From the NCBI GenBank assembly GCA_026388665.1, contig JAPLJJ010000052.1, forward strand, positions 1,780 to 65,779: DNA of 64,000 bases, in the 5' to 3' direction. A program made the position numbers and the translations under genes. The stretch is from Deltaproteobacteria bacterium (GTDB lineage Bacteria > Desulfobacterota > Desulfomonilia > Desulfomonilales > Desulfomonilaceae). This document shows positions 41,863 through 46,824 of this stretch, piece after piece. The notes under the pieces are model-generated. The model was not told the origin of the DNA and made no database searches. It was given only the letters and a program-made list of their open reading frames with translations. How positions within the stretch are numbered: the first letter of the stretch is position 1; every line of letters starts with the position of its first letter.

Positions 41863-43311
41863 TTGAACGAGAATTTGATATCCAGAATGAAACCAGCGCC
41901 TGTTCTCGTCGCTGGGGATGTAATGGTTGATGAATACGTAATAGGTGACGTTGAAAGAATTTCCCCTGAATCGCCAGTACCCGTCTTATTGGCAAAGGAT
42001 CGACACAGGCGTCTTGGAGGGGCGGGAAACGTCGTCAGAAATGTCGTTTCCATGGGAGGCGCCGTAGCCTTGTTCGCTACGATCGGCGGAGACGCGGCTG
42101 GAGAATGGTTCAAACGGCACTGCTCTGAAATTGGAGTGGATACTTTCTGGTTAAGATCTGAGAGATCGAGACCTACAACAATAAAGACTAGAGTTGTAGC
42201 TCGAAACCAGCAGATAGTTCGGATTGATGAGGAGTACGTTGGCGATATACCCTTTGACCTCGAAAAAAAAGTTCTAGATGACATAAGGTCAGTGACTCCT
42301 CAAGTGAAGGCCGTAATAGTATCCGACTATGGTAAGGGGTTCCTATCAAACACTATTTTGAATGGGTTATTTGCGACAGCCCGATCAGAAGGAGTCCCTT
42401 CTCTTGTAGATCCTAAAGGTATGGATTTTAGTCGATATCGTGGCGCGACTTATATAACTCCGAATGTACGTGAAGCTTCTCTGGCTTCCGGTATAGAAAT
42501 AAAGAACAAGGAAACACTTGAAAAAGCTGGCCGAATTTTGCTCGAACAAACGCAAGCTGAAGGAATAATTGTAACTCGCGGAAAAGACGGAATTACTCTG
42601 GTAACCAGAACCAAAATTCAGGATTTCCTGGTAAAACCTGTTGAAATTGTTGATGTTACTGGAGCTGGAGATACGGTGATCGCTACCCTTGCTCTCGCAG
42701 TGGCGAGTGGGCTTTCTATCGAAGAAGCCGCGCAAATGGCAAACCTGGCGGCTTCACTGGTTGTCGCGCGCTTCGGGGCGGCCTCTGTAACCCTTGACGA
42801 AATGCTAAACTCTCTCAAGAATTGGCCGCAGGGTCGAAAGGTTATCACTCGGGACGAGCTAGGTAGGGTTATCAGAAATCATAGACTGCAGGGCCAATTC
42901 ATAGTTTTCACTAACGGCTGTTTTGATCTGTTCCATGTGGGACATCTTGAACTTCTCCGCAAGGCATCCGCTTTGGGAGACATTTTAATTGTAGCTGTCA
43001 ACTCTGATGAATCAGTTCAAAAAATAAAAGGCTCAGGAAGACCGATTGTGGATGAAAAAGATAGGCTGGAACTAGTTTCAGCCTTAAATTGTGTAGATTA
43101 TGTTGTGTCTTTTGATGAAGACACTCCTTATAACCTTATAAAAGAAATTAAACCGGATATCCTGGTAAAAGGAGAAGATTGGAAAGGGAAAAAAGTTGTC
43201 GGGGAAGACATTGTAAACGAGCGGGGGGGTAAAGTTCAATTTGTACAGCTTGTGGGCGATGTTTCGACAAGTTCTCTTATTAATAAAGTCCTTTCCAATA
43301 GGAAAAATTAG
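41863..43311 (+). CDS. hldE: bifunctional D-beta-D-heptose 7-phosphate kinase / D-beta-D-heptose 1-phosphate adenylyltransferase
   Basis: N-terminal PfkB-type kinase (VLVAGDVMVDEY, DVTGAGDTV). C-terminal cytidylyltransferase (VFTNGCFDLFHVGHLELL). TTG start 6 nt after GGAGG. Confidence 0.9.
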   Translation: MNENLISRMKPAPVLVAGDVMVDEYVIGDVERISPESPVPVLLAKDRHRRLGGAGNVVRNVVSMGGAVALFATIGGDAAGEWFKRHCSEIGVDTFWLRSERSRPTTIKTRVVARNQQIVRIDEEYVGDIPFDLEKKVLDDIRSVTPQVKAVIVSDYGKGFLSNTILNGLFATARSEGVPSLVDPKGMDFSRYRGATYITPNVREASLASGIEIKNKETLEKAGRILLEQTQAEGIIVTRGKDGITLVTRTKIQDFLVKPVEIVDVTGAGDTVIATLALAVASGLSIEEAAQMANLAASLVVARFGAASVTLDEMLNSLKNWPQGRKVITRDELGRVIRNHRLQGQFIVFTNGCFDLFHVGHLELLRKASALGDILIVAVNSDESVQKIKGSGRPIVDEKDRLELVSALNCVDYVVSFDEDTPYNLIKEIKPDILVKGEDWKGKKVVGEDIVNERGGKVQFVQLVGDVSTSSLINKVLSNRKN

Positions 43312-43350: not shown

Positions 43351-45594
43351 TTATCTTCTATCCCGGCGCGGTCTCACATTTCTTCTTTCTCTTTGATTAT
43401 CCGGTTCCGGCGGTCTGTTTGGGCGCGGAGGACGCTTGATGTCTTCGAGCGCTACACCGAGTGGTCCGCCGGACACGACTGTTGTAGTTATTTCATTATT
43501 GTTCATAATACTTAATGTTACTTGAGGAGTCCTCGTGTATTCCTCAACCAATTTCTTGAGGCTTGTCACTCTCAGTCCTGTCTCACCGGCGTATTCAACC
43601 AATACATCACCGGGGATTATTCCAACACGGTCCGCAATACTTCCCTTTTGAACTTCGACCACTTTTACACCGGGAGATGTTTCTAATTCTTGTAAACGAG
43701 CAAGAATTATTCGCGCATTAATGGTGTCTCCCATTTTTCGGAATTCCGACAAGGCTTGAGTGTAAAGCTCCTTACTCTTAAAGGTCCGGTTTCTTTCCGC
43801 GTATATTCCGGCAAGGGTCGCTTTCACGCGGGCTACCCATTTTGGATCTTCCCGCTGTTCGTAAAGCTTCAACGCTTTTTCAAGGTCCTCAATTGCGTTG
43901 TCCCACTGCTGTTGCTGCGCGGCGAACATGGCCTGACGGAAAAGCCTGATCCCATCTTCCTCGCTAGGCGGCAGCGTGGAGTTCGATGTGGATTCATAGG
44001 ATGAGCCACCATCAGAAGAACTTTTCCTAGCGGTTTTCGTGTCCAAGTCCTCCGCATCATCTTCCATTACCACGCGAAAACCAAGGTTCCAGAAACTCAT
44101 TGTGTCGCCTGAAAAACCTCTGAAAGCGCATCTGCAGTCGGCTGGGCTAGCGAACCAATTTCCACCCTTGTTAACTCGCGATGTTCCCGTTGGGGGCCCC
44201 TTTGGATCCTCAATAGCCGAGGTTTCAAAGTAATTTCGATCATAATAATCCTGTACCCACTCCATGACGTTGCCCTCAATATCATAGAGCCCAAAACTAT
44301 TGGGAGGATAGCTGCCTACAGGAGCTACATATTCATATCCATCATTGACGGTGGTCAGACTGTCGGGCAATTTTGAGTTACCATCCCCGAAATTTGTGTC
44401 TTTGTCTCCAGGGAGTTTATTCCCCCATGGATATCGTGCCCAGACAGCGCCTCCGCGACACGCCATTTCCCACTCAGCTTCCGTCGGTAACCTATAATTT
44501 CGTTTTTCCTTACGACTCAACCATTTGCAGAAAGCCTGAGCGTCGTTCCACGAAACAAAAACCACTGGTTGATCATCAGCCAACTTCCAGGGGACCAAAT
44601 CCCACTTCATGTTCTTCTGTGGTACCCATCGTTCTTCTTTGTTGCTAAATATCATCCCCCCGTCGCCCTTTTCCGCGTCAGTTTTATATTTGGTCTCGTT
44701 TATAAAATCCCTGAACTGGCGGATGGTTACCTCATACGCGCCCAGATAGAACGGTCGAGTTATACGAACAGGATGCAACGGTGTCTCATCCTGAAACCAT
44801 TGTTTATGGCCTTCTCTCCATGTCCTGCGGAAGGTAAGCCTCAGCCAGTCCAACTCTTGTTTAGGACTCCCCATCATGTATTCCATGGCCGGTATCCTCA
44901 CCAATTTCATGCTGACTGAATTGGTATGTGTAATTTGCTTCTTTGGGGATTCGAACAATACATTTAGGCCCTGCAAAGATCTCAGCCAGTCAGCACAGTC
45001 ACGGCTCTCTCCCTGTCCTCCCTGACAGTCCTTCAACGTCTGCCGGAGTATTTCAGCAGCCCTTACAGAATCCCCGGAAAGGACAAGTTCTCCTGCCTTT
45101 CTAATTTTTTCAGAAGGAGACTCGGATGTATGGGTGTTGTTGCCCGTGTTGGAATTCTTAGATGTATCAGAAGTGTTCTGGGCGAACAGGGTGTTGTAGG
45201 GTTGGTGTTGATTGGAGGCTGAACCGGAACCCGGTCCTATCAGATAGGTTGGTGGTGTGGTTTTCATAGCCAAAATATTTGCTTGTTTTTTTTCTGTGCC
45301 AACGTGAGAGCTTTGACTCGCGTGGCACGTCAAATTTCGGGAAGGTAGAGACATTAGCGCGGCCACTAGAGCAACGACAATCGGAGCAATAACGATCCGT
45401 TCGAGTTTAGTTTGGTTGATGGGACCTTGATTAGCGGAAAAAAGCTTCTCGCTGATCCCCTTATGATCATGAACAATAATGTTATTTCTTTTGGCGAGAT
45501 GATATGTTTTAGCGATACTTGAAGTAATATATCGTGAATAGTAAACGTTAACTAGTATCATTATGCCATTGAAATTAATTTTTAAAATATTCAT
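43351..45594 (-). CDS. membrane-anchored FGE-sulfatase (SUMF1) domain protein with TPR-like region and C-terminal PDZ domain
   Basis: One TM segment (IVIAPIVVALVAALMSL). SUMF1 blocks are MKLVRIPAMEYMMGSP, PLHPVRITRPFYLGAYEVT, VSWNDAQAFCKWLS, YRLPTEAEWEMACRGG, FGLYDIEGNVMEWVQD and RVNKGGNWF...CRCAFRG. The helical repeat region is WDNAIEDLEKALKLYE... and the PDZ-like region is GVKVVEVQKGSIADRVGIIPGDVLVEYAG. The tail is Arg/Pro-rich. The start codon is uncertain. Confidence 0.8.
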   Translation of the reverse strand: MNILKINFNGIMILVNVYYSRYITSSIAKTYHLAKRNNIIVHDHKGISEKLFSANQGPINQTKLERIVIAPIVVALVAALMSLPSRNLTCHASQSSHVGTEKKQANILAMKTTPPTYLIGPGSGSASNQHQPYNTLFAQNTSDTSKNSNTGNNTHTSESPSEKIRKAGELVLSGDSVRAAEILRQTLKDCQGGQGESRDCADWLRSLQGLNVLFESPKKQITHTNSVSMKLVRIPAMEYMMGSPKQELDWLRLTFRRTWREGHKQWFQDETPLHPVRITRPFYLGAYEVTIRQFRDFINETKYKTDAEKGDGGMIFSNKEERWVPQKNMKWDLVPWKLADDQPVVFVSWNDAQAFCKWLSRKEKRNYRLPTEAEWEMACRGGAVWARYPWGNKLPGDKDTNFGDGNSKLPDSLTTVNDGYEYVAPVGSYPPNSFGLYDIEGNVMEWVQDYYDRNYFETSAIEDPKGPPTGTSRVNKGGNWFASPADCRCAFRGFSGDTMSFWNLGFRVVMEDDAEDLDTKTARKSSSDGGSSYESTSNSTLPPSEEDGIRLFRQAMFAAQQQQWDNAIEDLEKALKLYEQREDPKWVARVKATLAGIYAERNRTFKSKELYTQALSEFRKMGDTINARIILARLQELETSPGVKVVEVQKGSIADRVGIIPGDVLVEYAGETGLRVTSLKKLVEEYTRTPQVTLSIMNNNEITTTVVSGGPLGVALEDIKRPPRPNRPPEPDNQRERRNVRPRRDRR

Positions 45595-45843
45595 ATCAAA
45601 AATTCCTTGACAAAAAATACAATCAAGGGAATTGTAGCAGAGAAAAGGGGTGAGTCAAGTGTGGACTTTAGAGATGGGACTCATGCTTTATCGGTATCAG
45701 GTGATAACTTAGAAAAAGATTGACAACACCCAGTAAACATGGTACCGATTAACAAACGTTTTTTGGTTTTTCTATAGGGAGCAACTGTTTTCGGTTAGAG
45801 AACAGCGAATTTATTCTCGTTTAATGAGGAGGTAACGATTTCA

Positions 45844-46236
45844 ATGAGAAGATTTGCAGTGACGCTCGCGGTTGTAGGTATGGTTATGTTGTTCGCTTCA
45901 TACGGCTTTGGATTCTATGCGTGGGCTCCATATTCTTCATGGGGCAACGCGTCATCCAGCAGTAGCAGCGGAAACTATACAGCCAGTTCATCAAGTAGTG
46001 GCTATTATTGGCCGGCAAGCTCCTCAAGCAGCAGTGGAACAGTAGCTTATTGCTGTGTTCCTGCTTCCAGCAGCAGCAGCGGCTCATATTGGCCTGCTTC
46101 TTCAAGCAGCAGTGGAACAGTAGCTTATTGCTGTGTTCCTGCTTCCAGCAGCAGCAGTGGCAATTATTATTGGCCGGCAAGCTCCTCAAGCAGCGGTTAC
46201 TATCCTGCGAGCAGCTCTTCAAGTGGCTGGTTCTAA
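45844..46236 (+). CDS. small signal-peptide-bearing Ser-rich repeat protein (8 x (P)ASSSSSG with aromatic/Cys-Cys linkers)
   Basis: GAGGAGG lies 11 nt upstream of the ATG. The N-terminus MRRFAVTLAVVGMVMLFASYGFGFYAWA is hydrophobic. The gene has its own downstream hairpin + T-tract. The repeat architecture is preserved only in this frame; the other two overlapping ORFs translate the same CAG/AGC-rich repeats into low-complexity junk. Confidence 0.65.
   Translation: MRRFAVTLAVVGMVMLFASYGFGFYAWAPYSSWGNASSSSSSGNYTASSSSSGYYWPASSSSSSGTVAYCCVPASSSSSGSYWPASSSSSGTVAYCCVPASSSSSGNYYWPASSSSSGYYPASSSSSGWF
46004..46194 (+). repeat. intragenic perfect direct repeats (56 nt x2 with a 78-nt period; 29 nt x2)
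   Basis: 46024-46079 is identical to 46102-46157, and the next base differs only synonymously (AGC/AGT). 46004-46032 is identical to 46166-46194. Checked base by base in the given sequence. Confidence 0.9.
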
Positions 46237-46290
46237 GATCAATTTGTGAAACGGCATTATCCTAGCTTTTTAACTTAGAAAGCTTAGTGG

Positions 46291-46327
46291 AAAAAGGCGA
46301 TCTTTCATGTGAGGATCGCTTTTTTTG
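46291..46327 (+). terminator. rho-independent terminator after the repeat-protein gene
   Basis: AAAAAGGCGATC-(11-nt loop)-GATCGCTTTTTTTG. The stem is extended by A/T pairing and followed by a T-tract. Confidence 0.5.
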
Positions 46328-46350: not shown

Positions 46351-46824
46351 ATGAGGAAAAATCTCTACAATTTCGTTTTTTGCTCGTTATGTTTTATCAG
46401 CCTCGCCTGCTTCAGTGCGTGCCAGGAACATAGGGCGCAAACCAAAACAAAAGAAGCTCCTCCTGAATTACTGGGAACTTGGGTGCTGACCAATCGAATT
46501 ATTGATGGACAGGACACTCCGGTACAGGAGCGCCTGATAAAACTTACTTTCAAAAAGGAGGGGGTATTTCAGGCAAGCTACAAGGGTGAGCCTCGTCAGG
46601 CATGGATCTCCGCCGGGCGAGGAGCTTTTTTGTGCAATCCCCCAATGTTATCTTTGTTTTGGGATTCTGGGAGAGTCGTGCCTCTTCTGATTGGTGAATT
46701 AACGTCTGAGAGATTGCGCGTACACCACGGAAGAAACACTGTCCCAATAAAGGACCAGGAACCCGATGAAATTTTCCAAAAGGCACCTCAAGAAAAGGGA
46801 CCTACCAAAGGCGGCGCGTCCTAA
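46351..46824 (+). CDS. hypothetical lipoprotein
   Basis: MRKNLYNFVFCSLCFISLACFSAC is a signal peptide with a lipobox-like LACFSAC. The start is moved to ATG 46351 because the GTG-46309 extension would overlap the upstream terminator. Confidence 0.55.
   Translation: MRKNLYNFVFCSLCFISLACFSACQEHRAQTKTKEAPPELLGTWVLTNRIIDGQDTPVQERLIKLTFKKEGVFQASYKGEPRQAWISAGRGAFLCNPPMLSLFWDSGRVVPLLIGELTSERLRVHHGRNTVPIKDQEPDEIFQKAPQEKGPTKGGAS

Follow-up and report, generated by a model that had tools for sequence, protein, structure and literature searches.

The formylglycine-generating enzyme (FGE, or SUMF1) acts on the C-x-P-x-R motif of sulfatases. Mutation of S333, C336, H337, Y340 or C341 alters its activity, and the two cysteines among these residues are the active-site pair of a copper enzyme (PMC4505483). 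The C336/C341 pair binds Cu(I), and FGE requires both O2 and copper; another pair in the human enzyme, C235-C346, is a structural disulfide (PMC4505483). The same fold, PF03781 in Pfam, is found in pFGE (SUMF2), a paralogue of FGE that is inactive. It also occurs, fused to TPR and PDZ domains, in a large protein encoded on a stretch of 64,000 nucleotides from a Deltaproteobacteria bacterium of the family Desulfomonilaceae (assembly GCA_026388665.1, contig JAPLJJ010000052.1, positions 1,780 to 65,779). This whole stretch is called the window here. The gene for the large protein stands back to back with one for a serine-rich repeat peptide, and the original prediction took the two for an enzyme and its substrate.

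The Desulfomonilaceae are strict anaerobes. Comparison of orthologous loci shows that in this family the two genes belong to a strictly conserved, divergently transcribed trio whose products are, by their signal sequences, exported. Alignment to human FGE also shows that the FGE-like domain has lost the copper/cysteine catalytic site. The large protein is therefore called pseudo-FGE below.

A strictly conserved trio of genes

The pseudo-FGE gene (747 amino acids) lies on the minus strand at 43351..45594, as delimited by its open reading frame and Pfam domains. Across a divergent spacer of 249 bp (45595-45843) is the gene for the serine-block/aromatic repeat peptide (130 amino acids; 45844..46236, plus strand), defined by its open reading frame, a conserved start and stop, and the ratio of nonsynonymous to synonymous substitutions (dN/dS). 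The third member of the module, at 46351..46824 on the plus strand, encodes a lipocalin-like lipoprotein of about 157 amino acids with the lipobox ...FSAC. The first two reading frames, the spacer and two TTGACA boxes in it (45607-45612 and 45720-45725) were all found again where the original prediction had placed them. The lipoprotein gene had been overlooked.

A scan for co-occurrence, with one genome per species, gave 61 orthologous loci. Fifty-two of these are informative, having at least 1.5 kb of DNA upstream of the conserved core; the other nine are truncated, and hence come without peptide and lipoprotein genes. All 52 informative loci carry the peptide motif on the opposite strand, and all 52 carry a homologue of the lipoprotein gene downstream of the peptide. 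The question can also be approached from the peptide side. A metagenome scan seeded with [AG]WAP[YF][AS]xWG found 49 loci, and wherever there is enough flanking DNA the lipoprotein is downstream and pseudo-FGE upstream, always, except in two classes of paralogues. The idea that the pair is conserved and functionally linked thus holds up from both directions. Since peptide, pseudo-FGE and lipoprotein co-locate throughout, the unit is a trio rather than a pair.

The surroundings are less constant. A block with aconitase and MBL genes is absent in about 13 loci, and a block with hldE, thiD and moaA likewise in about 13. Four loci lack both blocks yet keep the trio (L027, L045, L048 and L058), and in two more, L068 and L069, MreB and a tRNA synthetase replace hldE, again with the trio kept. 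One or both flanks have changed in about 25 loci, and the trio is never split. Orientation, divergent promoter region and spacing are conserved across loci.

The peptide has no match to any Pfam or NCBIfam family, and its homologues are labelled 'hypothetical' in the source databases. By its sequence record the gene is genuine and not a chance open reading frame, because it is under purifying selection (median dN/dS of 0.16 over the first 34 codons, in 1,121 gene pairs), has mixed serine codons (28 AGY, 18 TCN) and recurs in all 52 informative loci. In every orthologous locus it has the same start, signal segment and stop.

The peptide reads MRRFAVTLAVVGMVMLFASYGFGFYA-WAPYSSWG, followed by eight A-S5/6-G blocks with aromatic or cysteine linkers and a final -GWF. 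By the consensus of orthologues, residues 1-34 (45844..45945, plus strand) form a conserved N-terminus, made of a signal or transmembrane (TM) segment and FYAWAPYxSWG. A variable repeat region of [Y/W/C]-x-P-A-S5-G blocks, joined by aromatic or cysteine linkers, comes next (45946..46161, plus strand). The C-terminal consensus then gives 24 near-invariant residues ending ...YYWPASSSSSGYYPASSSSSGWF (46162..46233, plus strand), a candidate docking element. Two CVPAS motifs and the -GWF terminus are present as originally reported. The 'six further' xPAS sites reduce to four: there are six P-A-S in total and two of them are the CVPAS motifs. The two remaining serine blocks are N-A-S and T-A-S.

These blocks were counted over 47 unique peptides, which hold 358 of them. 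Exactly five serines are found in 62% of blocks. Alanine precedes 89% and Pro-Ala 61%, and 58% match [Y/W/C/F]-x-P-A-S. Every block is followed by glycine, usually with tyrosine or tryptophan after that. Serine makes up 41% of the mature peptide, followed by Gly (13%), Ala (11%), Tyr (11%), Pro (6%), Trp (6%) and Cys (3%); K, D, E and H are practically absent, and R is at 0.4%.

The best-conserved parts are FYAWAPYxSWG near the N-terminus and the final 24 residues, ...YYWPASSSSSGYYPASSSSSGW[F/Y]. The WAP motif is invariant even among distant paralogues, and 46 of the 49 intact peptides from genome loci end in SSSGW[F/Y]. The interior varies in both copy number and type, being Cys-rich, Gly/Tyr-rich or fitted with GWGRRAARGWG inserts.

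These inserts define a subclade (L021, L024, L028, L056, L110 and L111) in which a Gly/Tyr/Trp-rich insert with GWGRRAARGWG takes the place of the cysteine-containing middle repeats. It is the sole charged stretch seen in any family member.

Within the peptide gene, a direct repeat of 70 nucleotides (46021-46090 and 46099-46168) is 93% identical between its copies. Short-read (Logan) contigs of the exact locus stop within the repeat (L001:1-189, L002:1-210), and three metagenome-assembled genomes (MAGs) have apparent frameshifts inside it (L013:4900-6000, L017:4900-6000, L064:4850-6000). The exact product of 130 amino acids is absent from recorded called genes. The gene is systematically missed, truncated or mis-called, because the repeat breaks short-read assemblies and frameshifts long-read ones. 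Open reading frames in other frames or on the opposite strand of the repeat were rejected as artefacts of low-complexity DNA; a conserved start, signal peptide and stop occur only in the serine frame.

As to the third gene, the lipobox cysteine is present in all lipoprotein orthologues. An AlphaFold2 (AF2) model of the lipoprotein is an eight-strand barrel, with a predicted local distance difference test (pLDDT) score of 76. Its best Foldseek matches in the PDB are lipocalin-family proteins of Bacteroides, 4gzv, 4iab and 4i95 (E 2e-4, TM-score about 0.5). The Pfam family Lipocalin_4 matches weakly (E 0.069), and for one orthologue, P0126, PF13648 is precomputed. Translation probably starts at the ATG at 46351, since a GTG at 46309 falls within a terminator-like hairpin.

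Pseudo-FGE and the loss of the catalytic site

Pseudo-FGE has three recognisable domains, all of them encoded on the minus strand. The FGE-sulfatase (C-type-lectin-like) domain covers residues 263-509 (44068..44808) and matches PF03781 with E 5e-58 and human FGE with E 3e-40. TPR helices at about residues 545-636 (43687..43962) match Pfam TPR_12 (553-616) and TPR_2, and are modelled with a pLDDT of 75-87. An HtrA/RseP-like PDZ domain follows at about residues 637-718 (43441..43686), with matches to PDZ_6 (645-680) and PDZ_2 in Pfam, to DegP/HtrA in NCBIfam and to the PDZ of an RseP homologue in the PDB. The PDZ_6 score of 26.8 bits is slightly below the cut-off of 27 bits. The PDZ domain is strongly conserved over the orthologous loci.

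The protein ends in a disordered tail rich in arginine and proline (KRPPRPNRPP...RRNVRPRRDRR; 43354..43440), with 12 K/R in the last 32 residues and a pLDDT below 50. This character is kept in all pseudo-FGE orthologues. The tail resembles proline-arginine-rich peptides, and could form cation-pi contacts with the uncharged aromatic repeat protein.

Aligned with human FGE, the loop that would hold the active site proves degenerate. It spans residues 477-492, GGNWFASPADCRCAFR (44119..44166). S333 has become N479, C336 is A482, H337 is S483 and Y340 is D486; only C341 is retained, as C487. Four of the five catalytic residues are thus replaced. Among orthologues the position equivalent to C336 is Ala or Ser. 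Position 487, over 53 loci, is C in 36; G (12 loci), A (3) and D (2) account for the rest. By contrast with the catalytic pair, the equivalent of the human C235-C346 disulfide, C379/C489, is invariant among orthologues. The original prediction had warned that the canonical FGE cysteine pair was not evident. That was right, and the four replacements and the dispensable C341 equivalent strengthen it.

Other enzymes with this fold do not fit either. The NCBIfam scores fall well below their cut-offs: 119 bits against 500 for PvdO, 108 against 350 for GldK, 72 against 420 for SenA and 58 against 360 for EgtB. The OvoA family match is sub-threshold too, and no DinB-type domain is found in the protein with Pfam or NCBIfam.

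The original prediction had also pointed to the CxPxS motifs of the peptide as a possible target of the enzyme. As a conserved target they do not survive the comparison. Nine orthologous loci encode peptides without any cysteine (L021, L024, L028, L031, L033, L039, L043, L044 and L056), and over the 53 loci no covariation of C487 with the cysteine content of the peptide was found. Enzyme and peptide cysteine are uncoupled, because the most Cys-rich peptides, each with 10 Cys, are those of the two loci with D487.

Exactly one hydrophobic segment is found in the 747 residues by a Kyte-Doolittle scan, starting at about residue 62. It is a probable signal anchor or TM segment at roughly residues 62-86 (45337..45411, minus strand), modelled as a helix at 62-81. 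Ahead of it is an N-terminal extension of 61 amino acids (residues 1-61; 45412-45594, minus strand), predicted to be a single long helix that covers residues 2-52 in the AF2 model. This extension is confined to the protein's own clade and its closest relatives (P0001-P0003, P0009, P0014 and P0018). Just ahead of the TM segment there is no ATG, GTG or TTG from which a downstream start would give a plain signal peptide. Most orthologues begin with a short signal peptide, and those of P0020 and P0024 are ordinary ones. The earlier claim that the FGE, TPR and PDZ parts are exported is borne out by these orthologue signal peptides and by C379/C489, since an invariant structural pair fits an exported protein.

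The full-length AF2 model, made with 30 orthologues, has a pLDDT of 49 and was used for secondary-structure and disorder boundaries alone.

The pseudo-FGE orthologues are 60-90% identical, and their named hosts are Desulfomonilaceae, Desulfomonile and 'Syntrophaceae' MAGs. In a search of 1.84 billion representatives at 50% identity, the full-length architecture corresponds to one cluster (P0028) plus fragments. The other matching representatives, about 180,000, align with the FGE domain alone. Because it makes up a single cluster among so many, the architecture is lineage-specific; its domain, going by these matches, comes from a large radiation of non-FGE proteins. The best of the domain-only matches are proteins of 1,000-4,400 amino acids with 2-18 FGE-domain stretches. 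Such copy numbers are typical of binding modules and not of enzymes. The database names of the large protein are generic: 'SUMF1/EgtB/PvdO family nonheme iron enzyme' or 'formylglycine-generating enzyme'.

Readings of the module

Our tentative reading, held with a little less than even confidence, is a lineage-specific periplasmic module of three genes in which the large protein is a scaffold, and not an FGE with its substrate. Pseudo-FGE would be tethered to the membrane and, without catalysis, use its three modules to bind the repeat protein as a scaffold or chaperone. The case for binding is that the trio is never split and its products are exported, that the catalytic residues are lost, that cysteine in the peptide is not required, and that the closest relatives are multi-copy FGE-domain proteins.

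Each part of the trio would then have a role. The HtrA-type PDZ would dock the near-invariant aromatic C-terminus of the peptide, ...SSSGW[F/Y]. The groove of the FGE fold, where true FGE has its C-x-P-x-R site, would hold the repeated [Y/W/C]-x-P-A-S units; a candidate segment for the groove of the FGE-like domain (220-515) is GYYWPASSSSSGY. TPR helices and the Arg/Pro-rich tail may add contacts and avidity, with Arg-aromatic cation-pi contacts possible. The lipoprotein could be a third partner, for example an acceptor on the outer-membrane side. The repeat protein itself would be a structural or protective low-complexity polymer of the periplasm, with aromatic residues as 'stickers' and Ser5 as 'spacers'.

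PDZ domains of HtrA, DegP and RseP bind hydrophobic C-termini. Docking is suggested here because the PDZ is of the HtrA/DegP/RseP-like type and the last 24 residues of the peptide are conserved, with interior linkers that vary freely. The original prediction had the PDZ capture the peptide end and the enzyme modify it. Capture would be in keeping with a PDZ of C-terminus-binding type and an aromatic terminus that is near-invariant. Modification is unsupported, and the nearest relatives of the domain are multi-copy and binding-module-like.

Part of the peptide family lives without this partner. The divergent paralogues P0135, P0144, P0148 and P0149 have no adjacent FGE-like gene. Stand-alone genes, with neither an FGE-like nor a lipoprotein gene next to them, are found at L066:6001-6528, L120:4959-5315, L121:7001-7507, L067:3130-3441 and L070:340-648; they had been overlooked before. 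Both L066 and L120 have ArsR (HTH_5), an ArsP_1 permease (PF03773), Thioredoxin_3 and thioredoxin as neighbours, joined by DsbD at L066. At L121 the neighbours are two ArsR, ArsP_1, Thioredoxin_3, rhodanese and thioredoxin, and upstream of these a PF13801 'Metal_resist' gene, a second weak, sub-threshold match to PF13801 and a MamS/MamX-like gene. L067 has MarR and ArsP_1, then an OEP/MFP/RND efflux set. L070 has an ankyrin-repeat-like protein and a PAS sensor. ArsR or MarR together with ArsP_1 is thus found beside four of the five, all except L070. The ArsR, ArsP and thioredoxin neighbours suggest that the stand-alone type is tied to metal(loid), thiol or sulfur stress of the envelope.

Several observations weigh against the scaffold reading. 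The stand-alone paralogues show that this type of peptide can exist without an adjacent partner, so not every family member has to lie next to an FGE-like gene. The last residues are GWR, GWYR or GWFR in about 10% of trio peptides (L030, L045, L058, L096-98, L113, L114 and P0139), and an Arg terminus is not a classical end for a PDZ ligand. Covariation of PDZ residues with the last residue of the peptide (F, Y or R) is not evident, a comparison that is uninformative because the PDZ is too conserved. The low pLDDT of the full-length model leaves the geometry of the FGE groove unreadable. Outside the C341 position, the loop is invariant (GGNW[FY][AS]SP.D.RCAFRGFSG), and this would suit a new catalytic site as well. 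Lastly, all loci come from one order, and shared ancestry inflates the count of co-occurrences.

The invariant loop is also where the strongest alternative begins. Under this alternative the genes would after all be an enzyme-substrate system, one with a new, non-formylglycine chemistry on the [Y/W/C]-x-P-A-S units that depends on neither O2 nor copper. Serine or aromatic residues might be modified or cross-linked, for example, with PDZ and TPR recruiting the substrate. The genes are strictly paired, and the loop that stands where FGE has its active site hardly varies. The domain as a whole is 60-90% conserved, and its sequence is closer to that of true FGEs (E 3e-40) than to those of PvdO, EgtB or PorK. 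The x-P-A-S motif resembles C-x-P-x-R, with the proline at equal spacing, and PvdO, EgtB, OvoA and SenA, sub-threshold matches here, use the same fold for non-FGE chemistry. However, no candidate catalytic residues or cofactor site were found in the domain, and the proteins nearest to it carry the domain in multiple copies. The peptide interior evolves in the manner of a structural low-complexity protein, unlike a defined core peptide. The genes are a core syntenic set among housekeeping genes and not a patchy biosynthetic cluster, and the stand-alone paralogues have no enzyme next to them. A new chemistry is unlikely on balance, yet deserves to be kept in view.

A broader and bolder idea, which we consider rather unlikely, is that the FGE fold was repurposed in an anaerobe, with loss of the copper site, in one of two ways. 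It may have become an O2-independent processive modifier of [Y/W/C]-x-P-A-S5-G units, or else it may organise a polymer or condensate of the 'sticker-and-spacer' type in the periplasm. In this second version the aromatic stickers and Ser5 spacers would have the Arg-rich tail as a cation-pi partner, and the resulting material would serve as a coat or buffer for metal(loid) or sulfur species, a role at which the paralogues beside ArsR, ArsP and thioredoxin genes hint. If true, either version would amount to an envelope system of a kind not known before.

The trio could also be neighbours by descent, a block inherited within one order with unrelated functions. All loci are indeed from Desulfomonilaceae or Desulfomonilales, the housekeeping flanks (hldE, thiD, moaA, aconitase) are often syntenic too, and peptide paralogues occur without the partner. 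The flanks change in about 25 loci without the trio ever splitting, however, with orientation, divergent promoters and spacing conserved, and all three products are sent to the same compartment. Descent alone is improbable as an explanation.

Slightly more doubtful still is a sensor of envelope stress, in which the PDZ would monitor free aromatic peptide ends, much as the PDZ domains of DegS and RseP watch the C-termini of outer-membrane proteins, and signal, in this clade, through the 61-residue cytoplasmic N-terminal helix. The PDZ is HtrA/RseP-like, the aromatic C-terminus looks like the end of an outer-membrane protein (OMP), a single TM segment is preceded by a predicted long helix at 2-52, and paralogues sit in stress islands regulated by ArsR or MarR. 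But most orthologues lack a cytoplasmic part and have just a short signal peptide that looks cleavable, the large protein has no protease or output domain, and the conserved trio comes without a regulator gene.

Classical FGE action, which would turn the cysteine of CVPAS into formylglycine or a related aldehyde, can practically be dismissed: an FGE-sulfatase domain is present and many orthologous peptides have CVPAS or CTPAS motifs, but the C336 equivalent is Ala or Ser, S333, H337 and Y340 are replaced too, 17 of 53 loci, among them the two with the Cys-richest peptides, have G, D or A at the C341 position, nine orthologous loci have Cys-free peptides, and the hosts are anaerobic where FGE needs O2 and copper (PMC4505483).

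Non-coding signals, neighbours and known systems

The second TTGACA box (45720-45725) is kept in all of about 55 distinct orthologous upstream regions. It is very probably the -35 element of the peptide promoter, judging from its conservation together with an A-tract and with a TGn-TA.... element 17 nucleotides downstream (45743-45748). The probable promoter as a whole, at 45720..45748 on the plus strand, consists of the A-tract, TTGACA, a spacer of 17 nucleotides ending in TGG, and TACCGA. A consensus promoter scan did not call it at this position because the -10 element is non-canonical. An invariant Shine-Dalgarno sequence, AGGAGG (45827..45832, plus strand), is found in all aligned upstream regions, 11 nucleotides ahead of the ATG. 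Between the peptide and lipoprotein genes is a terminator-like hairpin with a stem of 16 pairs and seven T (46290..46326, plus strand). Promoter, Shine-Dalgarno sequence and a hairpin of its own are consistent with a highly expressed structural product.

For the pseudo-FGE gene, the scan found a promoter-like site at 45631..45658 on the minus strand, TTGACT-16-TACAAT with TG. It matches at 10 of 12 positions, with each hexamer inside an invariant block of the intergenic alignment. The first TTGACA box (CTTGACAAA, 45606-45614) is invariant in 11 aligned close relatives. It is located downstream of the pseudo-FGE -10 element and only 13 nucleotides from the pseudo-FGE ATG. In appearance it is closer to an operator, or to a second promoter facing outward, than to the main promoter of the peptide.

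The 5' untranslated region (UTR) of the peptide gene also has a hairpin, CTGTTTTC-loop-GAGAACAG, found by eye at 45785..45805 on the plus strand. At about 40-60 nucleotides upstream of the ATG it recurs in distant loci (L004-L068), with stems that differ in sequence. The stem in L042, for example, is CCGTTTT/AGAACGG, and a second pairing, GAGAA/TTCTC, could compete. RNAalifold found no consensus structure for this hairpin in a MAFFT alignment of 24 sequences, and it has no Rfam match. Rfam gives zero matches across the entire window.

On the other side of pseudo-FGE is hldE (41863-43311, plus strand; PfkB and CTP_transf_like domains), a gene of the bifunctional heptose kinase/adenylyltransferase type, convergent with it across a gap of 39 bp. 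Since this adjacency is frequent and not universal, hldE is treated as synteny, outside the module. O-heptosylation of the serine blocks with ADP-heptose from hldE was considered and rejected: the adjacency is gone in about 13 loci, a heptosyltransferase is missing, and hldE and pseudo-FGE run towards each other. Further away, a MamF_MmsF gene (L069:11173-11532) lies a few kb from one trio and a MamS_MamX gene (L121:5017-5478) near a stand-alone paralogue. Such magnetosome-family neighbours are possibly coincidental.

The FGE-sulfatase domain is among the largest poorly understood radiations of bacterial domains, with about 180,000 representative clusters matched. Most copies are misleadingly annotated as 'formylglycine-generating enzyme' or 'nonheme iron enzyme'. 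A degenerate copy with a genetically fixed candidate ligand offers a tractable route to what such domains bind. The peptide, for its part, is unusual in its serine content, its regularly spaced Tyr/Trp and its lack of charge. It is kept throughout an order of sulfate reducers and dehalogenators that is abundant in the environment, and has paralogues in stress islands. Should it make up a material of the periplasm or coat particles, this would be new envelope biology.

FGE and pFGE are among the known systems that come closest. Pseudo-FGE has their fold and one conserved structural disulfide pair, and like pFGE (1Y4J, which it matches) it keeps that fold without the catalytic cysteine pair. The partner peptide has x-P-x motifs reminiscent of C-x-P-x-R. 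Unlike FGE, pseudo-FGE has four of five catalytic residues replaced, fusions to TPR, PDZ and an Arg-rich tail, a signal-anchor tether and an anaerobic host. In place of a sulfatase C-x-P-x-R, the peptide offers serine blocks with C-x-P-A-S at best, in which the cysteine is dispensable.

Other users of the fold are PorK/GldK, GldJ, Treponema denticola TvpA and the multi-copy giants. Structures of PorK, GldK and TvpA are matched. These relatives have neither the TPR-PDZ fusion nor a serine-block peptide as partner. By analogy with them, we infer that the FGE fold is used as a binding module here.

DegS, DegP/HtrA, RseP and Tsp have a PDZ of the same sequence type, and the candidate ligand here is aromatic-ended, like the YxF of OMPs. 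In contrast to these proteins, there is no protease domain, the repeat ligand is dedicated and co-encoded, and some ligands end in Arg.

The locus resembles those of ribosomally synthesised peptides that are modified after translation (RiPPs) in having a short gene for a peptide, served by a promoter and a terminator of its own, a neighbour with an enzyme-family domain, and repeated motifs. It differs in that the trio is core, syntenic and lineage-wide, and in the freely variable interior of the peptide. With Pfam and NCBIfam, the conserved trio shows neither a leader/core organisation nor a protease, a transporter or any recognised RiPP enzyme.

Structural proteins that reach the periplasm by Sec export include the sulfur-globule proteins SgpA-D. 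These are small and repetitive, with a signal peptide and regularly spaced prolines (PMC10386293). The repeat peptide resembles them in size, repetition, signal peptide and proline spacing, and some orthologues add Gly/Tyr/Trp-rich inserts; rhodanese and thioredoxin genes are found beside paralogues. On the other hand, the repeat peptide is uncharged and 41% Ser. This is an analogy only, and no homology is claimed.

A full-text literature search gave nothing relevant on FGE-sulfatase with PDZ, on the FGE-sulfatase of Desulfomonile, on PASSSSSG or on FGE with RiPPs. The domain types are known; the way they are combined, their dedicated repeat partner and the family of the peptide have no earlier description.

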